Assembly: GCA_951813575.1 (NCBI GenBank)
Contig: OX638375.1
Location: 3,498,752-3,562,751, forward strand
Direction of reading: 5' to 3'
Length of the DNA: 64,000 bases
Origin: Candidatus Binatia bacterium
GTDB taxonomy: Bacteria > Desulfobacterota > Binatia > UBA9968 > JAJDTQ01
In this document: positions 7,601 to 27,793 of the stretch, in pieces
Position numbering within the stretch: position 1 is the stretch's first letter
Layout: each line of letters opens with the position of its first letter
The notes under the pieces: model-generated
Told to the model about the DNA's origin: nothing
What the model saw: the letters and a program-made list of their open reading frames with translations, nothing else
Database searches by the model: none
Made by a program: the position numbers and the translations under genes

Positions 7601-8464
7601 ATGACGACAACGCGCCAAGTACGCATCGGTTGTGTCCAGACGCCGGCGCTGCCGACCTTCGGCGAGGCCATCGAGGCTGCCTGTCGCTTGGCCGGCGACG
7701 CGGTGGTGGCGGGCGCCGAGTTGGTGTGCCTGCCCGAGTATTGCGGTGGCCTCAAGAGCGAGAACGGTGTGCTCAATCCCCCGGGCGCGCCGGAGGCGAG
7801 CCACCCCGTGATCGAGGCCCTGTGCGGCTTCGCCCGCGATGCCGGAGTATGGGTGTTGATCGGTTCCGTGGCGGTAGACGGGCACGAAGGCCGGCTCATC
7901 AACCGCGGTTTCCTGGTGGACGACAAGGGCGAGATCCGCGCCCGCTACGACAAGATCCACCTGTTCGACGTGGACCTCTCCGAAACCGAGCGCTACCGCG
8001 AGTCCGCGGTGATCTACCCTGGCGCCCAAGCCGTGGTGGCGGACACCCCCTGGGGCCGCCTGGGCATGACTACCTGCTACGACCTGCGCTTTCCCCACCT
8101 CTACCGTTCGCTGGCTCACGCCGGCGCCGAGATCCTGGCCGTGCCGGCAGCCTTCATGAAGGTCACCGGCCAGGCCCACTGGCACGTGCTGAACCGCGCC
8201 CGGGCCATCGAGAACGGCGCCGTGGTGGTGGCCCCCTGCGCCGTGGGCCCGGTACCCGGCGGCGGCGCCGTCTACGGCCACTCCCTCATCGTCTCGCCCT
8301 GGGGCGAGATTTTGGCCGAGGGCGGCGACGGCGTCAGCACCATCGTCGCCACCGTGGACATGGAGAGCGTTGCCAGCGTCCGCAAGCGCGTGCCGAGCCT
8401 GCGGCACGACCGGCCGTTCAGCCAGCCGGCCGAAACAGAGGCGGGCCGCCGGTCGGTGGCCTGA
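7601..8464 (+). CDS. Carbon-nitrogen hydrolase (nitrilase superfamily)
   Basis: Catalytic E-K-C triad context (LVCLPEY, RYDKIHLFD, TTCYDLRFP). GGAGA lies upstream of ATG 7601. Confidence 0.8.
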   Translation: MTTTRQVRIGCVQTPALPTFGEAIEAACRLAGDAVVAGAELVCLPEYCGGLKSENGVLNPPGAPEASHPVIEALCGFARDAGVWVLIGSVAVDGHEGRLINRGFLVDDKGEIRARYDKIHLFDVDLSETERYRESAVIYPGAQAVVADTPWGRLGMTTCYDLRFPHLYRSLAHAGAEILAVPAAFMKVTGQAHWHVLNRARAIENGAVVVAPCAVGPVPGGGAVYGHSLIVSPWGEILAEGGDGVSTIVATVDMESVASVRKRVPSLRHDRPFSQPAETEAGRRSVA

Positions 8465-11398: not shown

Positions 11399-14559
<3,161 letters not shown>

Positions 14560-14560
<1 letters not shown>

Positions 14561-16092
14561 CACTCCACTTTTCCATGCACGAACCAGCCGTGGCGTTTGG
14601 AATCGTAGTAGACCCACAGCCATGGGCCCTCGCCGGCGCGGACGAAGTGGTACTCGCGGTGCACCCCGGTACCCGAGCCCCACCATCCTCCGGAGATGAT
14701 GTAGGGGCCGGCACTCTCCCGGCCAAGAAAGCCGCCGCGGGTTCGGGCGCCGTCAACTGGGGCGTCGCCGGCCCGGGCATCCCTGACCACGGGCTCGGCC
14801 ATTGCAGCGGGCGGCGCGGGGTCCCTGAGCCGGACGGGCTTGGGGAAGAAACGCCGCACCAGCGGGCGCAGCCGGACCGGTCGCGGCCTCGGCGCCGGCA
14901 CGTCTTCCATGGGCTCCCAGGTGAAGCGCGCCTCCGGAAGATGCCCGGCACGGGGCCGCGCCCGCAGCAGCGCGCCGTCGCCGAACCGGGCGCGCAGCCG
15001 CGCCAGCGCGCGGTTGGCCGCGTCGGGGTCGCGCGCGGAGGCGCCGTGGAAAAGCTCTCCCTGCCGGATATCCGGCGAAGCTCCCCGGAGCTCCATGAGG
15101 ATTTCCGTCACCCCGGCCGGCAGCTCCGTGGCTTCCAGGCGCAGCCGCAAGAGGTCCAGGATCTGTGCCCGGTCCAGGATGGGCCGGGCCGGCCGCAGGG
15201 TCTCGGCCTTCTCCGACTTGTCGTCCAGGCGGAGCTGGAGGAGGAGGGCGGTCATCACCTCGTGGCGCTGCTCCAGCGCTTCAAGCAAAGGCTCCAGCAA
15301 CTCCTCCATGAGCACCGCCAGCCGCTGGCGGTCGCTCTCCGGGTAGTCCAGGAAGACCCCCGCGGCGGTGGGCTCGGACGGCGTCTCCGGATGGAGCGGG
15401 CTCCACAGGTCGCCCGCGGCCAGCCGGTGGAGACGGTGGGCTTCCCGTCCCAGCCGCGAGCGCACCTGGGACGCGGGCAGGTCCAGGAAGCCGCCCAGGG
15501 TGTGGATGCCGAGCCGGGCCAGGAGGTCACGGACCTTGGGGGCGAGGTCGAGACGTTCGATCCGGACGTCGCGGACATGTTTGTGCTCTTCCTCGGGCGT
15601 GCGGAAGACCACGACCCGCTCGCAGGCCCTGGCCGCGGCATAGCTGCCGAAACGCGAGAACCCCACGGCCACGGTGTTGCGAAGGCCGGCGCCGTCGAGG
15701 TCGCCGTGGATGAGCCCGGCCCATTCCTCTAGGCGGGGATGGAGCAGGGAAAGCCCCGAGGCCCCGAGCCAGAACACACCGGGCTCGTCCCGGGAGGGCT
15801 CCACCTCGGCGGCGAAGCGCCGCAGGCGTGGAACCAGGCCGTCCACGGCCTTGTGGATGGCCGAGCGGGAAATGACGTCCGCCCGGAGATGGCGCGAGAG
15901 CGCAAGCCCCGCGCCATAGCTCATGCCCGGGAGGATGCACATGGCCCGCGCCCGATGGTTTACCCAGAGGATGGTCCCCTGGGCCTTGTCCCGGTCCACC
16001 ACCGCGGCGGGATGGTCTTTCCAGTCCGGATGGTCCCGGAGCAGCAGTTGCAGGGGAAAGGCCGCAACGTCAACACAGGCCATCCGTTCCAC
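14560..16092 (-). CDS. imuB: ImuB (catalytically dead Y-family polymerase homolog) of the mutagenesis cassette
   Basis: N-terminal UmuC/DinB-like fold (ACVDVAAFPLQ...). It sits between imuA and dnaE2 and overlaps the imuA stop. Confidence 0.85.
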
Positions 16093-16717
16093 GGCACGAC
16101 TCCATGTGGCTCCATCCCGGAGCCCCCCGCTTGTCCTTGACCATGCGGATTTCCCAGTCGAAGCGGCTGAAGGCAGTCCTCGTGATACTGCCCTCGCCGT
16201 GAAGCGACACCAGGGGCCCCAGCGAGGGCGCGCCCCGCTTCTTGCGGGTGAGGCAGAGGAGCGCCGCGTGGTGCTTCCGGGCCAGCGCCGCCAGGCGGCT
16301 CTGGACCGCCATGTGCATCCGCGCCTCGGCCTTCAGGTCCAGCACCACCAGGCCGAACGCGCCGGAGCGCAGTAGCTGGTCGGCCGCGCGGGACGCGGCG
16401 AGGGCGTCGGGGACCCGGACCACCGGCAGGGCCTCGAGATCGATGCCCCACTCGGCGAAATCCGGCGGGAAGAAGATCGAGTTGCCGAAGCCGATCCACG
16501 CCGCGGGCTCTCCCCGCTGCTGGGCCTGGAGGATCAGCGCGGCCGCGGCGGTGAGGGAAGGGGCCGCGCCCGAGTCCGACATTTCGGTGAGCCGTCCGGC
16601 CAGGGAGGACAGGTTCCAGGCCCTCGGGGTCTCGCGGACAGGCCGGCGCCGTGGCGCCGCGGGGGCGGGGCCCGAAGCCGGTATGGCGTCGTGAGTCTTT
16701 TCGGCGAAAACGTCCAT
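16070..16717 (-). CDS. imuA: ImuA (SulA/RecA-like) of the mutagenesis cassette
   Basis: 215 aa with a RecA-like core (AWIGFGNSIFFPPDFAEWGIDLEALPVVR..GAFGLVVLDL). It sits between lexA and imuB. Confidence 0.75.
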   Translation of the reverse strand: MDVFAEKTHDAIPASGPAPAAPRRRPVRETPRAWNLSSLAGRLTEMSDSGAAPSLTAAAALILQAQQRGEPAAWIGFGNSIFFPPDFAEWGIDLEALPVVRVPDALAASRAADQLLRSGAFGLVVLDLKAEARMHMAVQSRLAALARKHHAALLCLTRKKRGAPSLGPLVSLHGEGSITRTAFSRFDWEIRMVKDKRGAPGWSHMESCRGTDGLC

Positions 16718-16804
16718 GAAAGCTCTCCGTGTCCCGCAAAAGGCAAAGGATCGGGCGCCGGGAACACGCTGTCCCGGATGCCGCGCCCATGCGACCCTTC
16801 GGGT

Positions 16805-17419
16805 TTACCCTTCCAGATAGCGTCTCACCTCCACCACCTTGCCCAGGACGGTGCACTCATCGGCCCTGGGGACGATGGTTGCGAAAGCCGGGTTCTCCGG
16901 GTGCAGCTCGATCCGGCTCCGGCGCAGCCGGAGCCTCTTGATGGTGGCCTCGTCGCCCACCAGGGCCACGACGATGTCGCCCGAGGCGGCTTCCGCCTGC
17001 TGCCTCACCACGACGATGTCGCCCGGAAGGATACCCGCTCCGGTCATGCTTTCCCCCTGGACCCGGAGCCCGAACACTTCCTCCGAGCCCCGTGACTGGA
17101 CCGGGATGTAGCCTTCGCATTCCTCGATGGCCGCCCGCAGCCCGCCGGCCTGCACCCGCCCCAGCAGCGGCACGAACAGCGTCCCAGGCTCCCGGGGCAG
17201 GCGATAGCCTCTGGATTTGCCGTGCGCCTTGACCAGCCGCCCCTCGGCTACCAGGCGTTCCAGATGCTGGCGGGCCGTCTGCACCGCCCTGAACCGGAAC
17301 GCCTCCTGGACCTCCCGCACCGTGGGAGGAAGCTCCTCCAGGATCCGCCTGCGCACGAACCGGTAAACCTTGTCCCGGGTCTCCCCCGGTGGAGTGAAGG
17401 GTGTCATGAGGATGCGCAT
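16805..17419 (-). CDS. lexA: LexA repressor (S24 peptidase, autocleaving)
   Basis: N-terminal winged HTH, then the A-G cleavage site region and the S24 Ser/Lys motifs (GESMTGAGI..GD, IKRL). The start is either ATG 17419 (MRIL) or ATG 17407 (MTPF). Confidence 0.85.
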   Translation of the reverse strand: MRILMTPFTPPGETRDKVYRFVRRRILEELPPTVREVQEAFRFRAVQTARQHLERLVAEGRLVKAHGKSRGYRLPREPGTLFVPLLGRVQAGGLRAAIEECEGYIPVQSRGSEEVFGLRVQGESMTGAGILPGDIVVVRQQAEAASGDIVVALVGDEATIKRLRLRRSRIELHPENPAFATIVPRADECTVLGKVVEVRRYLEG

Positions 17420-17443
17420 ACCAGACTTTTGTCTGGTATGCAA
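17415..17443 (-). promoter_or_regulatory. Candidate lexA operon promoter with a perfect 22-bp palindrome in the spacer (putative LexA operator TACCAGAC-N4-GTCTGGTA)
   Basis: The minus strand reads TTGCAT-accagacaaaagtctgg-TATGCG-cat. The palindrome ATACCAGACAAAAGTCTGGTAT (17418-17439) lies between the -35-like and -10-like hexamers, immediately before the lexA start codon. Confidence 0.45.
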
Positions 17444-17470
17444 GGCAAATCGGATCCGCGACAAAGCGAA

Positions 17471-18154
17471 TCAAGACTCGAAGGCTCTCTTTTCATAAAC
17501 GGCTGCTATCTGCTGGCCATCCCAAACGTAACAGAGGTGCCGCTCCTGGCGGGCGTTGGAAAGCAGCAGCGGGCGGAAGGTCGCGACGCACTCGCCGCCG
17601 TCGTGGCGTATGCTGTCGTAGGCGATGCCGTTGGAGCCTGCCTCGCGGAGCGTTAGTGCGAGGCGCCGGGCGACTGTGTAGTCGTCACGGCGGTAGACTT
17701 CGGGAAAGGCTGCCTGCCGGCCGCGAAGGTCGTGAAGGTCGCCCTCCAGATCGATCGCATAGACCCGCATATCGAGCTCCATGCGGGACTGTGCCGTGGC
17801 GCGCATGAAGCGCGCGCGATGATGCTTGGTTTCTGCAATGGCCGTGTCGAGATCCTTGGCGGCATAGAACACGCCGTAGCTGCCGTCGGAGAATCGGCTA
17901 CCTTCCGGGTTGAGATGGGTGAAGGCCGCCATGATCACGCTGGCGCCAGGGCCGCCGATGCGATCCTCGGGCGGCACCAGCCGGATATCGCCGGCCTCGT
18001 CCCGAAGCCGCGGGTTGGTCAGCGACTCCAGTTCGAAGATCGCTTCCAGATCCCCAGGATCGGCCACCCGCTCGAACAGTTGAATCGGCGGGAAGCGGCT
18101 TGGGACGATCCGCCAGCAGGGCTTCCACTCGAGGCGGACGACCGGCGGCGTCAC
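17471..18154 (-). CDS. RES-domain toxin (type II toxin-antitoxin system, NAD-targeting family)
   Basis: R..E..S signature (GSRFSDGSYGVFYAAKDLDTAIAE ... YDSIRH). A GTG start overlaps the antitoxin stop (GTGA). Confidence 0.8.
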   Translation of the reverse strand: MTPPVVRLEWKPCWRIVPSRFPPIQLFERVADPGDLEAIFELESLTNPRLRDEAGDIRLVPPEDRIGGPGASVIMAAFTHLNPEGSRFSDGSYGVFYAAKDLDTAIAETKHHRARFMRATAQSRMELDMRVYAIDLEGDLHDLRGRQAAFPEVYRRDDYTVARRLALTLREAGSNGIAYDSIRHDGGECVATFRPLLLSNARQERHLCYVWDGQQIAAVYEKRAFES

Positions 18155-18567
18155 GCCCAGCCGCCGCGCTGCGTATCGAGGTACTGGCGTACGACGAAGA
18201 GGTCGGCAACCTGACCCGACAACATGCGCTCCAGAGCCGAGCGCCCGCCGAACAGCGGGGCGCTGTTCGGCCGCTTCACCCATTCATCGGCGGCGGTTTC
18301 GTCAGGCAGCAGGATCTGGAGCGCCTTGTAGATGCCGAGGATGTATGAGATACGCTCCAGCGTGTCCTTCGGCAGGGTTGTGTTCGGGTTCTTCTTCCAC
18401 TTAAAGAAGGTCGACCGCGCTGTCACGCCGAGAAGTGTCATCTGTTCGGCGACCGATAGGTTCCAGAGGCCGGCAATGCGAAAGAAGGTGCGCAACGCCG
18501 GTCCGGAATGCCCCTTTCGGTCGATCATCGTCGTCGAACGGGCGGGCACTTGCATAACTAACTCCAT
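18151..18567 (-). CDS. Xre-family antitoxin with DUF2384 toxin-binding domain (partner of the RES toxin)
   Basis: C-terminal DUF2384 region (TLERISYILGIYKALQILL..EWVKRPNSAPLFGGRSALERMLSG). It lies immediately upstream of the RES gene. The likely start is ATG at 18555 (MQVPARS...) after GGAG. Confidence 0.75.
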   Translation of the reverse strand: MELVMQVPARSTTMIDRKGHSGPALRTFFRIAGLWNLSVAEQMTLLGVTARSTFFKWKKNPNTTLPKDTLERISYILGIYKALQILLPDETAADEWVKRPNSAPLFGGRSALERMLSGQVADLFVVRQYLDTQRGGWA

Positions 18568-18767
18568 TTATATCCTAGTTAGCAAAATAGTCTATATTCA
18601 TACTGAACGCAAGGCAACCTGGGAGGGCATTTACCTCACTGGTATGCCTTGGATCCCATACCACTCGATCCATTTCATGGTGTAAGGGGCTCCACCGTGC
18701 TGGCCGGGCAAAAAATAACAAAGTCCCCGACCGGTGCCGAACCCCCGCCGACGTTACTTCGCAGCGT

Positions 18768-19355
18768 CTACCGCCCCTCGGCGGCGTCGCACTCGAACTT
18801 CCTCCGCGCGGTCCGATGCGCGAGCCTCCCGGCTTCTCCTGAGAGGCTCGGGATGTTCCTGGGCCGGGACGGAGCACGAGACGGTGAATACGGACCGGGG
18901 GCCGAGGTAAGTGTTCCGTCAGCCCGTGAGGTGGGCGAATTAGCGCCTTTCGAGGCCGGGCCACCGCCACGCAGCACGTAGCGGAACCGGTCCCCGAACC
19001 TCTCGTAGCGCGCCACCGCCCGGTGTGTGCCCTTTCCCTTGCGGTTGGCGTAGCTGTCGTGGATGAAGCCGTGCTCGAAGACGGGCTCGCAAACCATGCA
19101 GAAGGCGTGATGGACCACCCGGTCACGGAACGGGGCAGCGGAAACCAGGCGGTGCTTGGGATCGAAGATCTCCATGGTCCGGTAACGGCCCGGCCGGTAG
19201 CGGCCGCGCCGAAACTCGTGCTCCAGTCGCAGTATCTCCTTTTCCTGGTTGGCGAGGAATGCCGCGGCGCCCGGCTTGGCGCGCCTTGCCCAACGCCGCA
19301 CGCCGCGCTGCCGCCGAAAGGGCCGGGAAGGAAGCAATGGCATCGAAGAGGTCAT
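18768..19355 (-). pseudogene. DGR-type reverse transcriptase, N-terminal fragment only (truncated after the YVLRG region; the rest of the ORF is non-RT sequence)
   Basis: Residues 40-128, ...YRPGRYRTMEIFDPKHRLVSAAPFRDRVVHHAFCMVCEPVFEHGFIHDSYANRKGKGTHRAVARYERF..RYVLRG, match RT domains 1-2 of DGR RTs. After that no frame shows RT motifs 3-7 (no YxDD). The gene overlaps avd by 4 nt. Confidence 0.65.
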
Positions 19356-19726
19356 CCGCCTTCATGGCTTTGGTGCGCCTTTCTCCAGGCGCCAATGCGA
19401 TGTCCGGTCTCGTCCAGAGAGCGTGCAGCGTATTCGTAGCGGCGGGAATCGAGACAGCGGAGGCCATAGGCCAAGCGGAACAGAAATCGCAGCTTCTCGA
19501 TGCCGAGGTTGGCGTGGGCGGGCGGCGCGTCCCGGCGCCGGGTGTAGGTGGCTTCTATCAGGGCCTCGAGGACATCCATGGCGGTACTCTGGATACGGTC
19601 GCCGAGAAGGAATTTGTGCGCGCGGGGGAAGCGGTTGACCGCCGGCACGAGCCACAGGATGAAGCGGTAGGGACAGTCGAGGGCCAGCCCGGTCTCCCGC
19701 GCCCTGTCGCTGGCGATCTCGGTCAA
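19352..19726 (-). CDS. avd: Avd (accessory variability determinant) of a diversity-generating retroelement
   Basis: 124-aa basic helical-bundle protein (…FPRAHKFLLGDRIQSTAMDVLEALIEA…KLRFLFRLAYGLRCL..YEYAARSLDETGHRIGAWRKA) resembling bAvd. TTG start. It lies between the FGE-fold target and the RT. Confidence 0.7.
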   Translation of the reverse strand: MTEIASDRARETGLALDCPYRFILWLVPAVNRFPRAHKFLLGDRIQSTAMDVLEALIEATYTRRRDAPPAHANLGIEKLRFLFRLAYGLRCLDSRRYEYAARSLDETGHRIGAWRKAHQSHEGG

Positions 19727-19825
19727 TTAACCCTCGCGGTTACAGGTCTGAAGCAGGATTTCTCATGAGAATCGTCCAGTGGGCTCCGCCCCCTGGACCC
19801 CCCAAGATGTAAAGAGGTAAAGGAT

Positions 19826-21646
19826 TCATGGGATGAGCGTTCGGGCAATGCGGAACCCGCTGCTGTTGCCCCGGAGCCCGGCGGAGAGCCTGACGCGGAA
19901 GGCCGACCGGAGGATCCACGGCTTGTTGAGCCAGGAACCGCCGCGCAACACGCGGGAGTCACAGTCCCGGCTGGACGTCCAAGCGCTTCCGTCCGTCGGA
20001 GCTCCCAAGTAATTCTCATGCCAGCAGTCCTCCACCCACTCCCATACATTGCCGTGTACATCATGCAAACCAAAATCGTTCGCCGCGAAAGAACCCACCG
20101 GAACTGTCTTACTCCGACGCATGCCCTTGCGACCCGATCCATACGTATAGTGTCCGTTGTAGTTCGCCTGAGCCGTTGAGATCGTGGACCCAAAGTGGAA
20201 CGGCCCCGTCGTCCCCGCTCGCGCCACGTACTCCCATTCCGACTCACTCAACAGCCGGTACCTCTTCCCCGTCTCCCGCGACAGCCACTCCACGTACGAC
20301 TTCGCGTCCCTCCAACTCACATTGATCACCGGACGACGACCACGACCCCATCCTCCGTCATCCGGCCGGTATCCGCCACACCCTCCCCCCGCCACGCACG
20401 CATCCCATTCCCCAAACGTTACCTCGTACTTCCCTACCGCAAGCGGCCCCGGTATCCTCACCCGGTGACGCGGTTCTTCGTCGATACTGCGCTCCGCTTC
20501 GTCCAGTGGCGAACCCATCATGTAACTCCCGCCAAGTATCGCCACCATCTCCGGACACTCAGCGCAATCGCGGAATACGAACGCTCTCAAAACAGCCGAG
20601 TCCCGGCGCACCAGCGCCACCCCCACCGCCGTCTTGCCCTTCGGCCCTCTGATCGCAATGTCTGCCCCCGCCTTCACCAACAACTCGATGATCTCCGAAT
20701 GTCCGTGCACCGAAGCCATGAACAGCGCCGTCGCCCCGTCCGCCACCTGGACATCCGGGTCCGCCTTCGCCTTCAACAGCGGCCCCACCATCAGCTTGTA
20801 TCCCTTGTTCGCCGCATGCATCAGCGCTGTCCAGCCCCGCCCGTCCCGAGCGTTCACGTCCGCACCGGCCTTCAGTGCCGCGTTCAATCCGTCGATGTCT
20901 CCCGCACTGACCGCCCGGTGAAGCACATCCGGGCGCGGAGCCGGCGCGACAGGCCGGCGCGGCCGGGCGGGTTGCGTCGACTTCTTTTCCGTTCCACCCC
21001 GCTGACGCTTCGCTACCGCCCTCAGAACCCGGATCCCGTCCGGTGTCAATTCATCGGATGGCGCCAGCCTGGCGTCGCGCAGAAACGCCCCATAGGCCTT
21101 CGCCGTACGGCCGCCCCATTGGCCATCCGCGGGCCCCGGCTTATAACCGAGTACTGCCAGCAATTCCTGGGCCTCCCTAATCACCTGGACGGGCGGCGGT
21201 CCCGCAACCTGACGGGCGGGAGCGGTAGAGGGTCGCTTCGCAGTCGCCGGAGCCGGCTTGTCGCCTCCCGCCGCCGACTGCCACGCCCTGGCGCGATCTT
21301 GCGCTGTGGCTACCTGCTGCGGCGTCATCTTCGCGGCCAGCGTGTCGCGCTCCTTCAACGCCTCCATCTCGCCCCGGCTGGCCGCAAGATTGAACCACAT
21401 GTGCGCCAGCACGTAGTCCTGCGGCGCGCCCAACCCCTTGAGATACAGCCGCCCCAGAGCCAGCATCGCCCGGCGGTCCCCCGCGCCCGCGCCCGCCCGC
21501 CACTGTTCCAGCGCCTCAGCCGGGCGACCCGCCTTCCAGGCCTGCTCCCCCGCTTCATAGTCCGCTACGGCCGGAGGCGTACAGAAGATCAGCAATGATA
21601 TAGTCAACGCCGCGGAACGGATTGCATGCCGAATGTCTATTCTCAT
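19826..21646 (-). CDS. DGR target protein: secreted multidomain protein (signal peptide, Sel1 repeats, PG-binding domain, ankyrin repeats) with a C-terminal FGE-sulfatase/C-type-lectin-fold domain carrying the variable region
   Basis: Start MRIDIRHAIRSAALTISLLIFCTPPAVA (signal peptide, GGAG upstream). Sel1-like LALGRLYLKGLG, PG_binding_1-like ELLAVLGYKPGPADGQWG, ANK repeats (GWTALMHAANKG..GATALFMASVHGH) and FGE hallmarks (YRLLSESEWEYVARAG, GNVWEWVED, RVLRGGSW). Confidence 0.8.
   Translation of the reverse strand: MRIDIRHAIRSAALTISLLIFCTPPAVADYEAGEQAWKAGRPAEALEQWRAGAGAGDRRAMLALGRLYLKGLGAPQDYVLAHMWFNLAASRGEMEALKERDTLAAKMTPQQVATAQDRARAWQSAAGGDKPAPATAKRPSTAPARQVAGPPPVQVIREAQELLAVLGYKPGPADGQWGGRTAKAYGAFLRDARLAPSDELTPDGIRVLRAVAKRQRGGTEKKSTQPARPRRPVAPAPRPDVLHRAVSAGDIDGLNAALKAGADVNARDGRGWTALMHAANKGYKLMVGPLLKAKADPDVQVADGATALFMASVHGHSEIIELLVKAGADIAIRGPKGKTAVGVALVRRDSAVLRAFVFRDCAECPEMVAILGGSYMMGSPLDEAERSIDEEPRHRVRIPGPLAVGKYEVTFGEWDACVAGGGCGGYRPDDGGWGRGRRPVINVSWRDAKSYVEWLSRETGKRYRLLSESEWEYVARAGTTGPFHFGSTISTAQANYNGHYTYGSGRKGMRRSKTVPVGSFAANDFGLHDVHGNVWEWVEDCWHENYLGAPTDGSAWTSSRDCDSRVLRGGSWLNKPWILRSAFRVRLSAGLRGNSSGFRIARTLIP
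19829..19960 (-). other. Putative DGR variable region (VR) at the 3' end of the target gene
   Basis: The C-terminal codons are ctc aac aag ccg tgg atc ctc cgg tcg gcc ttc cgc gtc agg ctc tcc gcc ggg ctc cgg ggc aac agc agc ggg ttc. A run of NNC codons (ctc, aac, atc, ttc, gtc, ggc, agc) sits at the positions that are AAC in template repeats of FGE-fold DGR targets. Confidence 0.5.
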
Positions 21647-22099
21647 CCTGATTGAACTCCGTGGCGAAAGGCTTCCTGAAACCTTCGAAGGGCACTCCGC
21701 CGTCCGCACCCGCCCATACCAACAGCCACCGCATTGGCGCAGAGTGGACTGGTAGGTAGTTTCCAACTCCTCCCTCCGCCCTCCGATACATCGCCTTGCA
21801 GTGCGGCCGTGGCTTAACCTGGAGGTCACACGTTGGTTTCCAGCACAACCCGTCTTCCGACTGGATAAACCCTCGAACAAAAGTCTTCAACGGCGGCGGT
21901 CCAAAGCACCGCCGTCAGGCAGGAGACGAGCCCCCATTTCGCGCTAACGCTCATGCCATCATTCTCCGCGTTACAACGGCGGGAGTGGATCGACCCGCAC
22001 GCTTTTCGCCCCTCGGTCCCTTGAGAACGTCCGAACTATGGCTAGAGACAGAAGCGCTGGCGGACTCGATGCTACCTCTATGCACGGGAACCGGCCAAC

Positions 22100-22537
22100 G
22101 ATTATTGAATGCTGCCACAACTCCGTTTTCTACAATCTCTAGAATAGGTACCACGACTACCTCCAGTTCCCGCTGGTCGTCGTGTCCTTTGTTGCTCCAG
22201 ATAGCGTTGGCGTTCCGCCTGGCGCTGCCGGTTGAACTGAATAATGTTCTGAAGCGTATTCTGGAATGCCTTCTGTGCGCCCCCGCTGCCTCCGAAGGTG
22301 GTGGTGCTGGGTGCGCTTGAGCCCAACTGCTTCTTCCAGGCTGCCGCGGCTTCGCGCTCCTTGAGCAAAAGTCTTCAACGGCCGGAAGACGGCCGTGGAG
22401 GCGCATTTGACGGTGTCTCGGGCGTTCTCCAAAGCATCGCGAAGACCTGCCTCCGCGGAAGGAGCAGCCAACGCCACCCCAGCGGCTAGGGCCGCGGGCA
22501 GAACGGTGGAGCGAAAACATTTCGGCAAACGAGTCAT
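22100..22537 (-). pseudogene. Possible frameshifted small secreted protein (signal peptide, then Q/R-rich region in a second frame)
   Basis: ORF 22157..22537 starts MTRLPKCFRSTVLPAALAAGVALAAPSAEA (signal peptide). The plausible continuation AWKKQLGSSAP..QNTLQNIIQFNRQRQAERQRYLEQQR is in the +1 frame (ORF 22102..22368). Confidence 0.25.
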
Positions 22538-22547
22538 CTCGTGCCCC

Positions 22548-23030
22548 CTATTCGGTCAGCGACGTCAGGAACAGCCGTTGCAACCCGCAACTCCCTCCGC
22601 TCAGCCGGCAAAGAGCGAAGACATAGAGACGGCCGTCCTCCGGAAGTGACGCCACCATCAGGCGATGGTTCCCGCCCGCATCGAGCGTCATGTCGAGTCG
22701 CAGTCCCGCGACGAATCCCGCGGGGAGACGCGCCAGCGCGCTGGCGGTTGCGGCGTCCGTGTCGGGAGCGCCGGCCCGGATCGCGGCCGCATCCCTGGCC
22801 GCGAGCGCGTCATCGATCCTCTCCAGCGTCGGACCGAGCCACACCGGGCGGCCCGCGGCCCATTGCACGCGCATCGCCATATTCCACGCCAGCCGTGGAA
22901 AAACCGCGCGCATGTCGTTCGCCGCGGCCGCGAATGTCACGCCATCCCGGAAGCCCTCCAGAGCCGTAGCCGGATGGGCCTTGCGAAACGATCCGAGCCG
23001 CCGGGCCGGGATGTCGCGGAGAGCCGCCAT
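22548..23030 (-). CDS. Hypothetical protein (no family recognised)
   Basis: 172-aa ORF 22548..23066, with MAALRDIPARRL as the likely start. Composition is protein-like but there is no identifiable motif. Confidence 0.3.
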   Translation of the reverse strand: MAALRDIPARRLGSFRKAHPATALEGFRDGVTFAAAANDMRAVFPRLAWNMAMRVQWAAGRPVWLGPTLERIDDALAARDAAAIRAGAPDTDAATASALARLPAGFVAGLRLDMTLDAGGNHRLMVASLPEDGRLYVFALCRLSGGSCGLQRLFLTSLTE

Positions 23031-23300
23031 CGGTCCAGCCTTGTCCTTGGTCCATGGGGGTTGCAACGCGACGGGCGCCGCAGCATCGGCAAATCCGCCC
23101 TGCCGATGTCGGCGACACGGCGCTTGCCGAGCCGCGGGAGGATACGCCCGTCGATGATCTTTCGATGGAGCGCGGCGGTGGCGGGCTTCAGATGGCCGGG
23201 CGCGTACTCGTCCATGAAGCGCCGGGCGAGGTCGGCCATGGTGGCGCCGCCCGCCTTGCGGGGAGTCTTCCCTTCGAGGTCGCGCCCGGTCCTGGCGAGG
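22950..23300 (-). pseudogene. Tyrosine integrase N-terminal (core-binding/SAM-like) fragment, degenerate
   Basis: The minus-strand frame reads ..GRDLEGKTPRKAGGATMADLARRFMDEYAPGHLKPATAALHRKIIDGRILPRLGKRRVADIGRADL. This resembles P4-type integrase core-binding domains (TFxEvAxxWlexHxxxlkpsTxxxyxxxLexxilPxlGxxxixeI). No catalytic domain follows. Confidence 0.4.
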
Positions 23301-23970
23301 GTGACGATCTCTGCGGCGCGCGGCCGCCGGGGTGATGGGACCGCGGATTTTCCGACCGTCCCCCGGTCGAACTCTCCGGCATCAGCTGGACACGAAACCG
23401 GCGATTGACCCCGGCCCGGCGGGGCGCTACGGTGACTTTCTCCGAGGCACCAAACTGACTTGAGGACATACGCGCGCTTGCAGCGACTTAGTATTGGTTG
23501 AATGGGGTTACATATCGATTACGGCTCAAATGAGAATATTCCTAACATATTGATAAATAGGCCAAAAAACGATTTCAATGCAGAAAGGACCCGCAGATTC
23601 ATAACGCTATTTGTGAGACAGGACACTAGATAGTTAGCTGTTCCTGGTAAGATCGACCTCCATTTGAGTCGAGGACGATCATTCGGCGGCGGACCAGTCG
23701 GAGGGATCGACCGCCGGCCGGAATGGATCGTGGACACGAAGGCATCTTGCCTTGAACTCTGCCTCGCCCATGGTTGCCATTGGATTCACCTCTTACGCAG
23801 GGAGCACCTGAAAATATACAACAGTACACTCATAGTATACATGTTCAAGCTGTGCTGTCCGATCGCGATACCTGTCGAGCCCCGATTCGCACCCCGCTAC
23901 ACTATCTGTTAAAAATTTTCCCATCTCGCTCCGAAACCCACGAACGACACCGGGGCCGGGAGGATGCAGC

Positions 23971-24903
23971 TTGATCGAGGTCGAGGGTCTCACCCGAAAG
24001 TATGGTGATCTGGTGGCGGTGGACGATGTCTCCTTTTCCATCGGGAAGGGGGAGGTCGTCGGCCTGCTGGGGCATAACGGCGCCGGCAAGACCACCATCA
24101 TGCGCATGCTCACCGGCTACATCGAGCCCACCGCGGGGTCGGTGGTCATCGACGGCATGCCGCTCTACGAAGCGCGACTGAGCATCCAGCGGAAGATAGG
24201 CTATCTGTCCGAGAACGCTCCGCTTTACCCGGACATGTCGGTGGTGCGCTACCTGGAGTACGTGGCCGATCTGCGCGGCGTCCCGCGCGCCGGCCGTCCG
24301 GCCGTGCTCAGGCGGGCGCTGGAGCGGACATGGCTGACGGACCGGTCCCTGGATCCGGTGGGCACGCTTTCGAAGGGCTACAAGCAGCGGCTGGGGGTGG
24401 CCCAGGCCATCGTGCACGAGCCGGAGATCCTGATCCTCGACGAGCCCACCAACGGTCTGGACCCCACGCAGATCTTCCAGATGCGGTCGCTGGTCCGGGA
24501 CTTGAGCGAGAACGCCACCATCATCGTCTCCACGCACGTCCTTCAGGAGGTGGAGGCGATTTGCGAACGAGTGATCATCATGGTGCAGGGACGCATCGCG
24601 GTGGATGCCCGGCTGAGCGAGCTGCAGCAGTCCCACCGGTTGGTGGTGGGGCTCGGCAAACCGTCCGACGACGCGGCGGAACGGCTCGGGGAGATTCCGG
24701 GAGTGGGGATGGTGTCGCCGGCGGAGGGGCTCCGCGGGGAGAGCTACGCCCTCGAGCTTGAGATCCCCGTCGACGAGGTGGCCCCCGGCGTGGCCAGGGA
24801 GGCGGTCGAACGCGGCTGGGAGCTCTTTCGCATGAGCGAGGAGGCCCGTACCCTGGAGACCGTGTTCCGCGAGGTGGGGGAGAGAGGCGGCCATGTCCGG
24901 TAG
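23971..24903 (+). CDS. ABC transporter ATP-binding protein (ABC-2 / GldA-like)
   Basis: Walker A GHNGAGKTT, signature LSKGYKQRL, Walker B ILILDEP and H-loop STHVL. TTG start. Confidence 0.85.
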   Translation: MIEVEGLTRKYGDLVAVDDVSFSIGKGEVVGLLGHNGAGKTTIMRMLTGYIEPTAGSVVIDGMPLYEARLSIQRKIGYLSENAPLYPDMSVVRYLEYVADLRGVPRAGRPAVLRRALERTWLTDRSLDPVGTLSKGYKQRLGVAQAIVHEPEILILDEPTNGLDPTQIFQMRSLVRDLSENATIIVSTHVLQEVEAICERVIIMVQGRIAVDARLSELQQSHRLVVGLGKPSDDAAERLGEIPGVGMVSPAEGLRGESYALELEIPVDEVAPGVAREAVERGWELFRMSEEARTLETVFREVGERGGHVR

Positions 24904-27793
24904 CATCTGGAGCATCGCCAAGAAGGAGTTCTCCACCTATTTTTCCTCGCCGGTGGCGTTCATCTTCCTGGGGACGTTCTCGGCCGTGTGCCTGTTCATC
25001 TTCTTCTGGGTCGAGCAGTTCTTCGCGCGCAACATCGTCGATGCAAGGCCGTTGTTCGAGTGGATGCCGATCCTGCTCATCTTTCTCAGCGCGGCCCTGA
25101 CCATGAAGATGTGGAGCGAAGAACGGCGCATGGAGACCCTGGAGTTCCTCTTCACCATGCCGGTGAAGACGCTCCATCTGGTGCTGGGCAAGTTCCTGGC
25201 CTGTCTGGGGCTGGTGGCCATCGCCCTGGCGCTGACCTTGGGCGTCCCGGTCACCGTCTCGTTCATGGGACCCCTGGACTGGGGCCCGGTGCTGGGCGCC
25301 TACACGGCGTCGCTGCTGCTGGCGGCGGCCTACTGCTCCATCGGCCTCTACATCAGCGCGCGGAACGAGAGCCAGATCGCCAGCCTCATCCTCACCACCG
25401 TCATCGGCTTCGTGTTCTACCTGCTGGGGTCCCTGACGTTCGGTTTCCTGGCCGGCGTCCAGTGGGCCGAATACCTTGGTCTGGCGGCCACGGGCGTCCG
25501 CTTCGAGTCCATCACCCGGGGCGTCCTGGACCTCCGGGACATCTACTACTACGTCAGCATCGTCGGCGTTTTTCTCGCCCTGAACGTCTTCTCACTGGAG
25601 CGGCTGCGGTGGTCCCGGGAGGGCCAGAAGACACGCCACCGCGCTTGGCGGGCCGTGACCGCGCTGGTGGTGCTCAATTTCGTCCTGGCCAACTTCTGGC
25701 TCCACCGCGGACTGACCGCGCGCGCGGACCTCACGGCGGGAAAGGACTACTCCATTTCCCAGGCGACCCGGGACCTCGTCGCCCAGTTGCAGGAGCCGCT
25801 GCTCATCCGGGGTTACTTCAGCGCCCGCACCCATCCGGTGCTGGCTCCGCTGATGCCTCGGATCCGCGATACCATTCGCGAGATCGAGTCCCTCAGCGGC
25901 GGCCGCGTGCGCGCGGAGTTCGTGGACCCACGGGAGGAGCCCGATCTCGAGGAGGAGGCCAATCAGCGCTACGGCATCCGGCCGATCCCCTTCCGGACAG
26001 AGGACCGCTACCAGACCTCGCTGGTCAACTCGTACTTCGACCTGCTGCTCCAGTACGGCGACAAGCACGAAGTGCTGCGGTTCCAGGATCTGATCGAGAT
26101 CAAGGGCGGGCGGACGGGAACCAACATTCGCCTGCGGAACCTCGAGTACGATCTGGCCCGGGCCATCAAGAAGGTGCTTTACGGCTTTCAGGACATCGGC
26201 GCGCTGTTCGCCGGCATCGATCAGCCGGTGGAACTCCGGGGATACATCTCGTCGGTGGAGAAGCTGCCGAAGTCCATCGCGCCCTTCAAGCGGCAGTTGC
26301 TGACGTCGCTGAGGGAGCTCCGCAAGGAGTCGGAGGGAAAGTTCAAGTACGAGATCATCGATCCCGAGACCGAGGGCGTGGCCGAGCAACTGGCCCAACA
26401 GTACGGCTTCCGCCCCATGGCGGCGGGACTCTTCGATCCGAAACGCTTCTACTTCTACATGGTCATGAAGAACAACGGCAGCACGGTGCAGGTGCCCCTG
26501 CCCGGTAAGCTGAACCAGGAGTCCGCCAAGCGGAGCGTGGAGTCGGCGCTCCGCAGGTTTGCCCCCGGGTTCATCAAGACCGTCGGCTTCCACACCCCGC
26601 CGCCGGAGCCCCGGCAGCCGGGAGCGCGCTTCCAGCCGCCGCCCCGGCAGTTCCGGCTCGTGCTGCAGAAGCTCAGGCAGAACTACCGCCTCGCCGAGGT
26701 GGACCTCAAGTCCGGGCTGGTGCCGGAGAACGTGGACCTGCTGCTGCTCGCGGCGCCCAAGGAGCTGACGCCGAAGCAGCGGTTCGCCGTGGACCAGTTT
26801 CTCATGAAGGGCGGCTCGGTGGCGGCGTTGACCTCGCCCTATACCGTGGCCCGCACCCCGGCCGGTCTGGCCGCCAGCCGTTACACCTCCGGCCTCGAAC
26901 CGCTGCTGGAGCACTACGGCGTGACGGTGCAGAAGACCCTGGTGCTCGATCCGCGGAACGAGCCATTTCCGGTGTTCGTGAACCGCCAGGTGGGCGCCTT
27001 CACCGCCCGTGAGCTGCAGCTCGTGCCGTACCCCTACTTCGTCGACGTCCGGGACGAGAGCCTGAACCAGGACAATCCCATCACCTCCCGGCTGCCCCAG
27101 TTGACTCTGAGCTGGGCCTCGCCGCTCACGCTTCCCGACGAACAGGACGGCGGCATCACCGCGACGCCGCTGCTTTCCAGTTCCGGGGCGTCCTGGGTGT
27201 CGAGTTCCCTGAAGGTCCATCCGGATTACAAGGTCCACCCGAAGCTGGGGTTCGAGAAGGAGGGCCAACCCAAGGGGCGGGTGCTGGCCGCGGTGGTGGA
27301 AGGCAGTTTCCGTTCCTACTACGCGGGCAAGGACTCGCCGTTGCTGGCCGGGGAAGACGGCGGTGAAGCGAAACCCTCGCCGCCCGGGGGCGGCGAGGCC
27401 GCGGAAAAGAAGGACGGCGAGGAGGAGCCGGTGGTGACCGGCATGATCGAAAAGTCGCCGGAGTCGGCCCGCATCATCCTGGTCGGTTCCAATGAGGCAT
27501 TCACCGACCAGATGCTTCAATTGTCACGCGCGGCAAACAACGACCGGTTCGTGAACTCGCTGCAGTTCCTGGAGAACGTGGTGGACTGGGCCTTGGAGGA
27601 CCGCGCCCTCCTGTCCATCCGGAGCCGCGCCCACTTCGCCCGGACCCTCGTCCCCATGACCCGCGAGCGGAAGGCGTTCTGGGAGTACCTGAACTACGGC
27701 ATCGTGCTGATGGGCCTGGCGTTGATCTACGGCGGCTACCGGTATCACCTGCGCCGGCTGCGCGACCAATACGAGAGAACGCTGGCGGCGTAG
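24893..27793 (+). CDS. ABC-2 family permease fused to a GldG-like periplasmic domain (GldF-GldG-type fusion)
   Basis: The N-terminal 240 aa has six-TM ABC-2 permease character. A long soluble middle follows, then a C-terminal TM helix (GIVLMGLALIYGGYRY). The gene overlaps the ATPase gene stop. Confidence 0.7.
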   Translation: MSGSIWSIAKKEFSTYFSSPVAFIFLGTFSAVCLFIFFWVEQFFARNIVDARPLFEWMPILLIFLSAALTMKMWSEERRMETLEFLFTMPVKTLHLVLGKFLACLGLVAIALALTLGVPVTVSFMGPLDWGPVLGAYTASLLLAAAYCSIGLYISARNESQIASLILTTVIGFVFYLLGSLTFGFLAGVQWAEYLGLAATGVRFESITRGVLDLRDIYYYVSIVGVFLALNVFSLERLRWSREGQKTRHRAWRAVTALVVLNFVLANFWLHRGLTARADLTAGKDYSISQATRDLVAQLQEPLLIRGYFSARTHPVLAPLMPRIRDTIREIESLSGGRVRAEFVDPREEPDLEEEANQRYGIRPIPFRTEDRYQTSLVNSYFDLLLQYGDKHEVLRFQDLIEIKGGRTGTNIRLRNLEYDLARAIKKVLYGFQDIGALFAGIDQPVELRGYISSVEKLPKSIAPFKRQLLTSLRELRKESEGKFKYEIIDPETEGVAEQLAQQYGFRPMAAGLFDPKRFYFYMVMKNNGSTVQVPLPGKLNQESAKRSVESALRRFAPGFIKTVGFHTPPPEPRQPGARFQPPPRQFRLVLQKLRQNYRLAEVDLKSGLVPENVDLLLLAAPKELTPKQRFAVDQFLMKGGSVAALTSPYTVARTPAGLAASRYTSGLEPLLEHYGVTVQKTLVLDPRNEPFPVFVNRQVGAFTARELQLVPYPYFVDVRDESLNQDNPITSRLPQLTLSWASPLTLPDEQDGGITATPLLSSSGASWVSSSLKVHPDYKVHPKLGFEKEGQPKGRVLAAVVEGSFRSYYAGKDSPLLAGEDGGEAKPSPPGGGEAAEKKDGEEEPVVTGMIEKSPESARIILVGSNEAFTDQMLQLSRAANNDRFVNSLQFLENVVDWALEDRALLSIRSRAHFARTLVPMTRERKAFWEYLNYGIVLMGLALIYGGYRYHLRRLRDQYERTLAA

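Follow-up and report, generated by a model that had tools for sequence, protein, structure and literature searches.

The prototype of the diversity-generating retroelements (DGRs) is found in Bordetella phage BPP-1, where the genes and the template repeat (TR) are ordered mtd-avd-TR-brt and the diversified target is a phage tail-fibre protein. Other DGR variable proteins are of the FGE-sulfatase type, for example Treponema denticola TvpA and Thermus TaqVP. Going by the prototype, a working element of the kind described here would employ its reverse transcriptase (RT) and Avd to copy TR RNA into cDNA while adenines are misread; the variable region (VR) at the target gene's 3' end would then be overwritten by this cDNA, with the VR 3' end and a downstream hairpin as guides. 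Hairpins downstream of the VR have a role in target recognition during homing (PMC3240598). Truncated DGR RTs were recorded in the DiGReF survey (PMC3521204); Anabaena sp. 90 has a degraded cassette and Nostoc PCC 7120 an orphan target, all3226 (PMC7517822). In such dead elements the RT is broken by deletion, frameshift or transposon and the target keeps VR features without working machinery (PMC3521204, PMC7517822); decay of this sort is an ordinary, already documented fate of DGRs.

The window analyzed here (a stretch of 64 kb) contains three adjacent minus-strand open reading frames (ORFs) that encode a target protein, Avd and part of an RT. The locus is best read as an inactivated DGR of the target-avd-RT-TR type, in which the catalytic part of the RT and the TR were probably deleted and the target was left frozen (probability about 0.88). 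Shared with BPP-1 are an Avd protein, an RT from one and the same clade, a target of the C-type-lectin fold whose gene has the VR at its 3' end and, past the VR, a GC-rich hairpin (PMC3240598). In contrast to BPP-1, the family to which the window belongs has its TR after the RT, its target is a cellular protein of the FGE-sulfatase type with Sel1 and ankyrin repeats, and the hairpin loop reads GGA instead of GRNA. In the window itself, the RT is reduced to a stump of 133 codons and the TR is absent.

The target gene (19826..21646, minus strand) is an intact ORF of 606 aa whose exact product is present in the protein collection. A signal-peptide-like N-terminus is followed by a Sel1 repeat, a weak PG_binding_1 match, ankyrin repeats and a C-terminal domain of the formylglycine-generating-enzyme (FGE)-sulfatase/C-type-lectin fold; the Ank and Sel1 matches exceed the Pfam cut-offs and PG_binding_1 falls below its own. 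The sequence-only reading had proposed a secreted target with such a C-terminal fold. The fold was borne out by the FGE-sulfatase profile, which matched from end to end (residues 363-602 of 606, E=1.3e-52, profile positions 1-255 of 255); the N-terminus, MRIDIRHAIRSAALTISLLIFCTPPAVA followed by DY, by eye looks like a Sec signal peptide. The VR (19835..19957, minus strand) makes up the last ~41 codons of the target and ends 9 nt before the stop codon. TvpA and TaqVP likewise carry the VR in the last ~40 codons of an FGE/C-type-lectin fold and have AAC-derived variable codons, and the variable codons of the window VR derive from AAC codons in the TR. Compared from sequence alone, the window target differs from these proteins in its N-terminal Sel1/PG-binding-like/ankyrin architecture.

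The gene avd (19352..19726, minus strand) is an intact ORF of 124 aa with a TTG start. A resemblance of this product to Avd had been suspected, and both curated profiles now identify it as the DGR accessory protein: it scored 47.9 bits against a cut-off of 40 for Pfam bAvd (PF22296) and 96 bits against a cut-off of 80 for NCBIfam NF033474 (DivGenRetAVD). A PDB sequence search with Avd as the query returned no match. The protein is 98% identical to the Avd of L001, a sister lineage described below.

The third ORF (19355-18768, minus strand) had been described as an RT that resembles DGR RTs over its first 128 aa and then loses all similarity. The homologues are indeed DGR RTs and similarity stops after ...RFRYVLRG, but the remnant, as delimited with homologues and tblastn, consists of codons 1-133 (18966..19365, minus strand; N-terminal extension and motifs 1-2) and the first ~25 residues of the listed ORF are an out-of-frame reading. 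The ancestral RT start is the ATG at 19365 (MKADDLFDAIASF...). An extra G at 19285, specific to the window and found in neither L001 nor the close strain L002, shifts the frame by +1 near RT codon 27; it could be a sequencing error. Because the ancestral start lies at 19365, the 4-nt overlap of avd and RT seen in the listed ORFs is secondary, the ancestral overlap having been 14 nt. When the full-length RT homologue P0010 was compared with the window by tblastn, only its residues 1-132 were matched. Alignment with full-length relatives showed motif 3 (CDIYRYFP), motif 4 (LPIGNLTSQ) and motif 5 (YVDD) in the relatives and none of them in the window, in keeping with the earlier remark that motifs 3-7 and YxDD are missing. 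As RT homology ends at 18966/18965, before motif 3, all catalytic aspartates, the SQ motif and the TR are lost. Past this point the ORF reads through into unrelated DNA for its last 63 residues, and this non-RT tail (18768..18965, minus strand) continues beyond the deletion junction into former intergenic DNA.

The order target-avd-RT-TR is preserved in five independent genomes with intact DGRs, all soil MAGs: L003, L004 (ENA), L006 (Thermodesulfobacteriota), L009 (Ca. Binatia) and L011 (Alphaproteobacteria). Their RTs are 73-86% identical to the retained part of the window RT and their Avd proteins 50-87% identical to the window Avd, and they have the same VR/TR core, CTTTACC motif and hairpin. 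Three features that the window lacks are present in them: a complete RT (about 310-330 aa), a TR rich in A (30-34 adenines) and a conserved segment of ~150 nt downstream of the TR.

Two closer relatives allowed the lesion to be mapped. The sister lineage L001 is 94.5% identical to the window and has a full-length RT and a TR that is cut by an IS-like element. Homology between the window and L001 ends at 18965, where the L001 RT continues to full length and into the TR. L002, which comes from another sample and another assembler and is 98.9% identical to the window, has a junction that is identical base for base, and this agreement between independent assemblies shows that the deletion is real. 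The RT and TR sequence lost from the window amounts to at least 0.9 kb. A second, window-specific deletion of ~668 bp is located at ~18967-18951; at this position L002 keeps a fragment of an EamA-family gene, and its 668 extra bp are flanked by the microhomology GGCCCGGCCTC / GGCCGTCCCT. Comparison with the relatives shows that the first deletion extends from RT codon ~133 outward: RT motifs 3-7, the TR and the conserved RNA segment that follows the TR have been lost, and the RT stump is fused to unrelated DNA. Later lesions are the second deletion of ~668 bp, one mismatched pair in the hairpin stem and, possibly, the +1 frameshift near RT codon 27. The proposal of a former DGR that was inactivated by loss of the RT C-terminus and the TR thus agrees with the junction as seen against L001 and repeated in L002. 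In contrast to the dead DGRs reported previously (PMC3521204, PMC7517822), the breakpoint is mapped to the base and common to two strains, and the sister lineage L001 was inactivated independently by the IS-like element inside its TR.

Independent losses observed in the family include deletion of the RT 3' end and the TR (window and L002), insertion of an IS-like element into the TR (L001) and internal RT deletions in several relatives. A deletion hotspot near ...RFRYVLR... was considered and set aside, given that the breakpoints of homologues are scattered over residues ~128-250.

The sequence-only reading had found no second VR-like sequence at the locus, and wider searches gave the same result. 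An ungapped scan of the 64-kb window for a TR, tolerating A-to-N mismatches, matched no more than 46 of 60 positions, a noise-level result. An nhmmer profile of five family TRs had the VR (19956-19834, E=2.8e-23) as its single match below E=0.5 in the 64-kb window, and the TR-downstream element was found nowhere in the same stretch. Within 64 kb, the VR therefore has no partner TR from which it differs at TR adenines only. In the family the TR sits 90-240 nt downstream of the RT, within the deleted stretch, which explains why it is missing. A remote TR is disfavoured, both by this layout and by the VRs of the window and L002, which are identical despite flank divergence of 1.1%.

Past activity was examined with TRs taken from relatives in other genomes, none of them the cognate TR: the window VR differs from the L004 TR at 22 of 119 nt, with 18 of the mismatches at TR adenines (Fisher P=4e-10), and from the L003 TR at 25 positions, 20 of which are adenines (P about 3e-10). 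This concentration on the adenines of the relatives' TRs points to past adenine mutagenesis and supports the proposal that the target was once diversified. The 3' end of the window VR reads CCCGAACGCTC, as do the VRs of the relatives, whereas their TRs read CCCGCACGCTC (VR-type end CCCGAACG versus TR-type end CCCGCACG). The VR differences between the window and L001 are more difficult to interpret. The FGE domain of the target is only ~80% identical to that of L001 and the remaining gene is 97-100% identical, so these differences may reflect recombination with a paralogue instead of diversification in situ and cannot date the last DGR activity. The comparison with L002 revealed no ongoing VR variation between close strains: 24 differences were counted over 2.2 kb, none of them in the variable part of the VR, and identical VRs between flanks that differ by 1.1% suggest that the VR has been frozen since the deletion.

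The homing signals, comprising a VR-specific end and a GC-rich hairpin downstream of it, are largely retained. The conserved motif CTTTACCTCTTTACATC (19806..19822, minus strand) directly follows the target stop codon; comparison of the flanks of L001-L013 showed it downstream of nearly all family VRs and absent downstream of TRs. Next to it, the GC-rich inverted repeat GTCCAGGGGGC-GGA-GCCCACTGGAC (19774..19798, minus strand) is predicted by DNA folding to form a VR-proximal hairpin or cruciform. By analogy with BPP-1, it would be the homing target-recognition element. The stem is retained in an alignment of 10 sequences, with a compensatory U-A to A-U double change in L001. In the window, a C-to-A change at 19780 introduces one G.A mismatch, which is common to L002. 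The VR-side motif and hairpin, together with the TR-downstream segment, may aid models of target recognition for DGRs with the TR downstream of the RT.

Several other explanations of the locus were weighed. An origin of the RT fragment in a group II intron or retron, not in a DGR, is extremely unlikely. Its sole NCBIfam match is the group II intron RT model TIGR04416 (44 bits against a cut-off of 300), and Pfam, RVT_1 included, gave nothing at E<=0.01 on the RT ORF; NCBIfam holds no DGR RT model, so its group II match cannot tell RT clades apart. Among solved structures, the fragment matched the 328-aa chain 8ub7_A with E=1.5e-20 and a group II intron RT with 3e-4, a margin of 53 bits, and P0010 behaved in the same manner (6e-38 versus 1e-19). 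The PDB record of 8ub7_A reads 'Reverse transcriptase' only; from the aligned sequence we take it to be the Bordetella phage DGR RT. The retron RT model matched only the full-length relative, with a weak score of 38 bits (cut-off 235). No Rfam family, intron or other RNA, reached the gathering score in 14000-26000, and in place of an adjacent msr/msd RNA the fragment has Avd and a VR for context. In the full-length homologues closest to it, motif 4 contains the SQ typical of DGRs, and these homologues lie in cassettes with Avd and adenine-biased TR/VR pairs. It is also very improbable that the element is intact in the organism and only looks truncated through an error of assembly or sequencing. 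Close relatives do come from low-coverage or long-read assemblies with evident frameshifts (L001 is labelled 2x), and the single-base insertion at 19285 is typical of such errors. Against this stand the exact recurrence of the junction in L002, the nature of the damage, in which RT and TR sequence is missing and not frame-shifted, and the absence of an RT C-terminus or TR in any frame within 64 kb.

A broken local cassette could still have its VR diversified in trans by an intact sister DGR elsewhere in the chromosome, and remote targets are common in the family: L004 has one TR and two targets; L007, L008 and L010 carry FGE-type genes with the family VR, and their 8-kb loci yielded matches to neither RT nor Avd; and in L012 a target is followed by an avd fragment and has a VR with 23 mismatches (19 at TR adenines) to the TR of L011, located on the same contig. 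The nearly intact VR end, conserved motif and hairpin of the window would suit such a supply as well. It is nonetheless improbable, since the VRs of the window and L002 have stayed identical and the hairpin mismatch affects a base pair preserved in all nine other sequences of the alignment. Among the best 120 matches of the RT N-terminus, only P0001, the window's own RT fragment, is assigned to the 4,210,610-bp contig of the window, a weak test for a paralogue because the assignments describe cluster representatives only. Retention of avd and the RT stump for a new function independent of reverse transcription might be suggested by the open avd frame, which matches the full Avd profile, and by the many database homologues that are likewise short. 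Yet the truncation points of these homologues vary (residues ~128, 133, 135, 141, 150, 165 and 190, plus internal deletions) and define no conserved short form, the L002 avd has lost its start codon with changes concentrated at its 5' end, and the window RT stump is frameshifted. A new function is therefore highly unlikely; we infer that avd is still open merely because the time has been too short for decay.

On the preferred reading of an inactivated DGR, the secreted Sel1/ankyrin/C-type-lectin-fold binding protein would now be encoded in a single, fixed variant. The appropriate annotation of the locus is that of a DGR remnant in which the RT is a pseudogene, the TR is absent and the target is fixed as a single variant; automatic DGR finders will rightly miss it, and it has little importance beyond annotation. 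It does represent a cleanly mapped case of DGR death and, together with L001 and L002, offers a short natural series in which to ask if the loss of diversification is neutral or selected. That the repeated switch-off of DGRs was selected to freeze a favourable variant of a secreted binding protein, instead of being neutral decay, is a tentative idea that we consider rather unlikely.

The neighbourhood of the locus was also inspected. The 64-kb window contains no second RT, Avd or FGE gene, and no tRNA adjoining the integrase fragment was found. Outside the DGR lies a RES-Xre toxin-antitoxin pair (17471..18567, minus strand), composed of an Xre-family antitoxin (18567-18151), which has a helix-turn-helix and a C-terminal domain for toxin binding, and then a RES-domain toxin (about 18154-17471). 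The Pfam matches to PF20432 (Xre-like-HTH), PF09722 (Xre_MbcA_ParS_C) and PF08808 (RES) all exceed the cut-offs. The pair is now ~200 bp past the stop of the RT-remnant ORF (18768) and ~400 bp past the junction at 18966/18965, and the order of the two genes is the same in L002. A degenerate VR/TR pattern, scanned against genome contigs, retrieved nine loci, from other MAGs. For the lineage of the window, the long sequence pattern CGCGGCGGTTCCTGGNNCNNCNNNCCGNGGNNCCTCCGGTCGGCCNNCCGC could serve for scanning metagenomes.

On the minus strand, the ORF listing contains three ORFs in succession between positions 21646 and 18768. The first (21646-19826, 606 aa) encodes the target protein, which was matched end to end by Pfam FGE-sulfatase (E=1.3e-52). 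Sel1 and ankyrin repeats were also detected in Pfam, a PG_binding_1 match stayed below threshold, and the N-terminus, judged by eye, looks like a signal peptide. The product of the second ORF (19726-19352, 124 aa) had been proposed to be Avd-like, and the profile search confirmed this with Pfam bAvd (47.9 bits, cut-off 40) and NCBIfam NF033474 DivGenRetAVD (96 bits, cut-off 80). The third ORF as listed (19355-18768, 195 aa) had no match in Pfam. A database search returned 729 homologues, whose full-length members measure 310-340 aa and carry RVT_1, and the similarity to these ends about 55% along the query. The FGE-sulfatase match, the two Avd models and a reverse transcriptase (RT) match of residues 1-132 support the sequence-only reading of a decayed diversity-generating retroelement (DGR) with an FGE-fold target, avd and a truncated RT. 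The + strand GC skew is strongly negative at 20001-22000 (-0.31 and -0.16), far stronger than elsewhere in the window, and the target coding strand is thus markedly G-rich.

The nearest RT homologues start with MKADDLFDAIASFPALSAAARRAALGKRAKPGAAAFLANQ. This type of N-terminus is encoded from an ATG at 19365, in a frame other than that of the listed ORF, and an extra G at 19285 connects the two frames. Neither close relative, the sister-lineage locus L001 nor the near-identical strain locus L002, has this window-specific base, which may be a sequencing error. Homologues thus upheld the DGR-type start of the RT and not the reading frame first assigned to it; with the ATG at 19365 and the extra G, the ancestral avd/RT overlap becomes 14 nt, replacing the 4 nt noted previously. 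The full-length relative P0010 matched the window by tblastn at residues 1-132 only, and in the protein alignment the window RT departs from the family immediately past RFRYVLRG. Motif 3 (CDIYRYFP), motif 4 (LPIGNLTSQ, including the SQ that DGR RTs typically carry) and motif 5 (YVDD) are absent in the alignment to the family and no catalytic aspartates remain, in line with the earlier observation that motifs 3-7 are missing. The NCBIfam library contains no model for DGR RTs, and the sole match of the RT, to group II and far below threshold, gives no verdict on its clade. Among sequences of solved structures, the window RT fragment reached E=1.5e-20 with chain 8ub7_A and 3e-4 with a group II intron RT; P0010 reached 6e-38 and 1e-19, respectively. 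From its aligned sequence we take 8ub7_A to be the Bordetella phage DGR RT, the PDB record title being merely 'Reverse transcriptase'. RTs P0023, P0031, P0041, P0048 and P0052 from other genomes have internal deletions of their own: motif 4 or the motif-3 aspartate is gone, or the RT N-terminus is joined to the TR reading frame. Part of the many short RT homologues may instead be frameshift errors of long-read assemblies.

L001 aligns with the window from 22228 to 18965 at 94.5% identity, and homology stops there. Past the equivalent of 18965, L001 retains the remainder of a full-length RT, frameshifted in this 2x-coverage assembly, followed by the first 27 nt of a template repeat (TR). There the TR is interrupted by an IS-like transposase fragment (HTH_Tnp_1, L001 4085-4510), which is an independent inactivation of the same DGR. 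Downstream of this element lie genes for a large AAA_16 protein and type I restriction HsdR. L002 (98.9% identical; other sample, other assembler) has exactly the junction of the window, at which ...CGTGGC meets GGTGGCCCGGCCTC..., followed by 668 bp that the window is without, including an EamA-family gene fragment; beyond these, the window sequence resumes through Xre, RES, LexA and ImuA. As the junction is common to both and the extra 668 bp are found in L002 only, the deletions can be ordered. The first removed the RT from about codon 133 on, the TR and the TR-downstream segment, at least about 0.9 kb of DGR sequence, and predates the split of the window and L002 lineages. The second, which took about 668 bp and lies at a short microhomology, is window-specific. 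L002 has lesions of its own: 2 nt are inserted in its target, and its avd start codon is lost.

For the family comparison, loci encoding close homologues were fetched. Five intact sister DGRs (L003, L004, L006, L009 and L011; drawn from two ENA assemblies plus MAGs that carry the labels Ca. Binatia, Thermodesulfobacteriota and Alphaproteobacteria) all have the order target-avd-RT-TR, with the TR 90-240 nt past the RT. Family TRs contain 30-34 adenines per ~120 nt (...TGG AAC AAC AAA CCG AGG AAC...), and the variable regions (VRs) differ from their own TRs almost solely at TR adenines; L004 has one TR and two targets. Two elements, the motif CTTTACCTCTTTAC and an inverted repeat rich in GC (GGGGGTCCAGGGGGC-GGA-GCCCCCTGGAC), lie 3' of nearly all VRs and of none of the TRs. 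The stem is conserved in an alignment of 10 sequences, L001 showing a compensatory change, and corresponds to the hairpin/cruciform on which the prototype DGR depends for recognising its target (PMC3240598). Immediately 3' of every TR, a conserved segment of ~150 nt with apparent stems was observed (...GGAGCCG..GTCCTCACGGGG..GAGCGTYCAGGGGCGGYCATGRTGA..GGACCCGCGCCCCTCTTGCC...; L003 9205-9350, L004 9207-9350, L006 ~2305-2160 (-), L009 ~5767-5620 (-), L011 ~7726-7870), which may represent a structured 3' portion of the DGR RNA where the TR follows the RT.

The reported lack of a TR at the locus extends to the entire 64 kb: an ungapped scan forgiving mismatches at candidate-TR adenines gave nothing over noise (best 46/60), and an nhmmer profile of the five family TRs plus 150 nt downstream matched the VR alone (19956-19834, E=2.8e-23). 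The TR-downstream segment is absent from the window, where its own profile found nothing (best E=0.56), and the 64 kb hold no further RT, Avd or FGE-type gene. Of 119 positions compared with the L004 TR, 22 are mismatched in the window VR (19835-19957), and 18 of these mismatches fall on the 30 TR adenines (Fisher P=4e-10); with the L003 TR, 20 of 25 do so (P=3e-10). The few remaining mismatches are mostly third-codon lineage differences. This concentration on the adenines of relatives' TRs argues that the window VR is derived from adenine-mutagenised cDNA. The 24 differences between the window and L002 in 2.2 kb, all of which spare the variable portion of the VR, fit a lack of diversification since their common deletion. 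Compared with L001, the FGE domain (window ~20400-19826; L001 ~2090-2660) is ~80% identical, a divergence reaching beyond the VR alone, versus 97-100% in the N-terminal 1.2 kb. This looks like a domain exchange with a paralogous target; the many differences of the VR from L001 are therefore useless for timing the last activity.

A remote TR elsewhere in the chromosome could serve the window VR, and the family offers a precedent in target locus L012, whose contig also carries the intact DGR L011: the L012 VR agrees with the L011 TR at non-adenine positions, and adenines account for 19 of the 23 mismatches. However, the window VR is frozen relative to L002 and its hairpin is damaged by a C-to-A mismatch at 19780, present in L002 alike, and service by a remote TR is considered very improbable. 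L012 itself (561-680, 796-957; TR at L011 7618-7740; alphaproteobacterial MAG contig) has a second FGE-type target followed by a 54-residue avd fragment only, and looks like a decayed duplicate cassette with a target diversified from the L011 TR.

Among the features expected of a functional DGR, the locus retains Avd, the target fold and the homing signals, and lacks the RT catalytic motifs, a TR and current variation. DGR RTs cut short by a transposon, a nonsense mutation or a frameshift are on record, as are degraded cassettes whose targets are orphaned (PMC3521204, PMC7517822), and the locus is best filed as a DGR remnant of this known kind.

At 22937-23239 (minus strand), within a ~1.1-kb stretch (22229-23358) missing from L001, lies the N-terminal part of a phage-type integrase gene (SAM-like domain only, E=3e-5); no tRNA gene was found near it. 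This fragment suggests that the DGR is located within a degraded integrative element. The intact relative L003 adjoins conjugative transfer genes (TraL/E/K/B/V/C). On the other side, a toxin-antitoxin pair (17471-18567, minus strand) made up of a RES-domain toxin and an Xre-family antitoxin has its promoter-side flank now joined to the RT stump via the deletions. Immediately beyond, in the same order in L002, lies an SOS mutagenesis cassette (11399-17464, minus strand) of LexA, ImuA-like, ImuB-like (Y-family) and second Pol III alpha (DnaE2-type) genes, whose position next to the DGR remnant is probably a coincidence.
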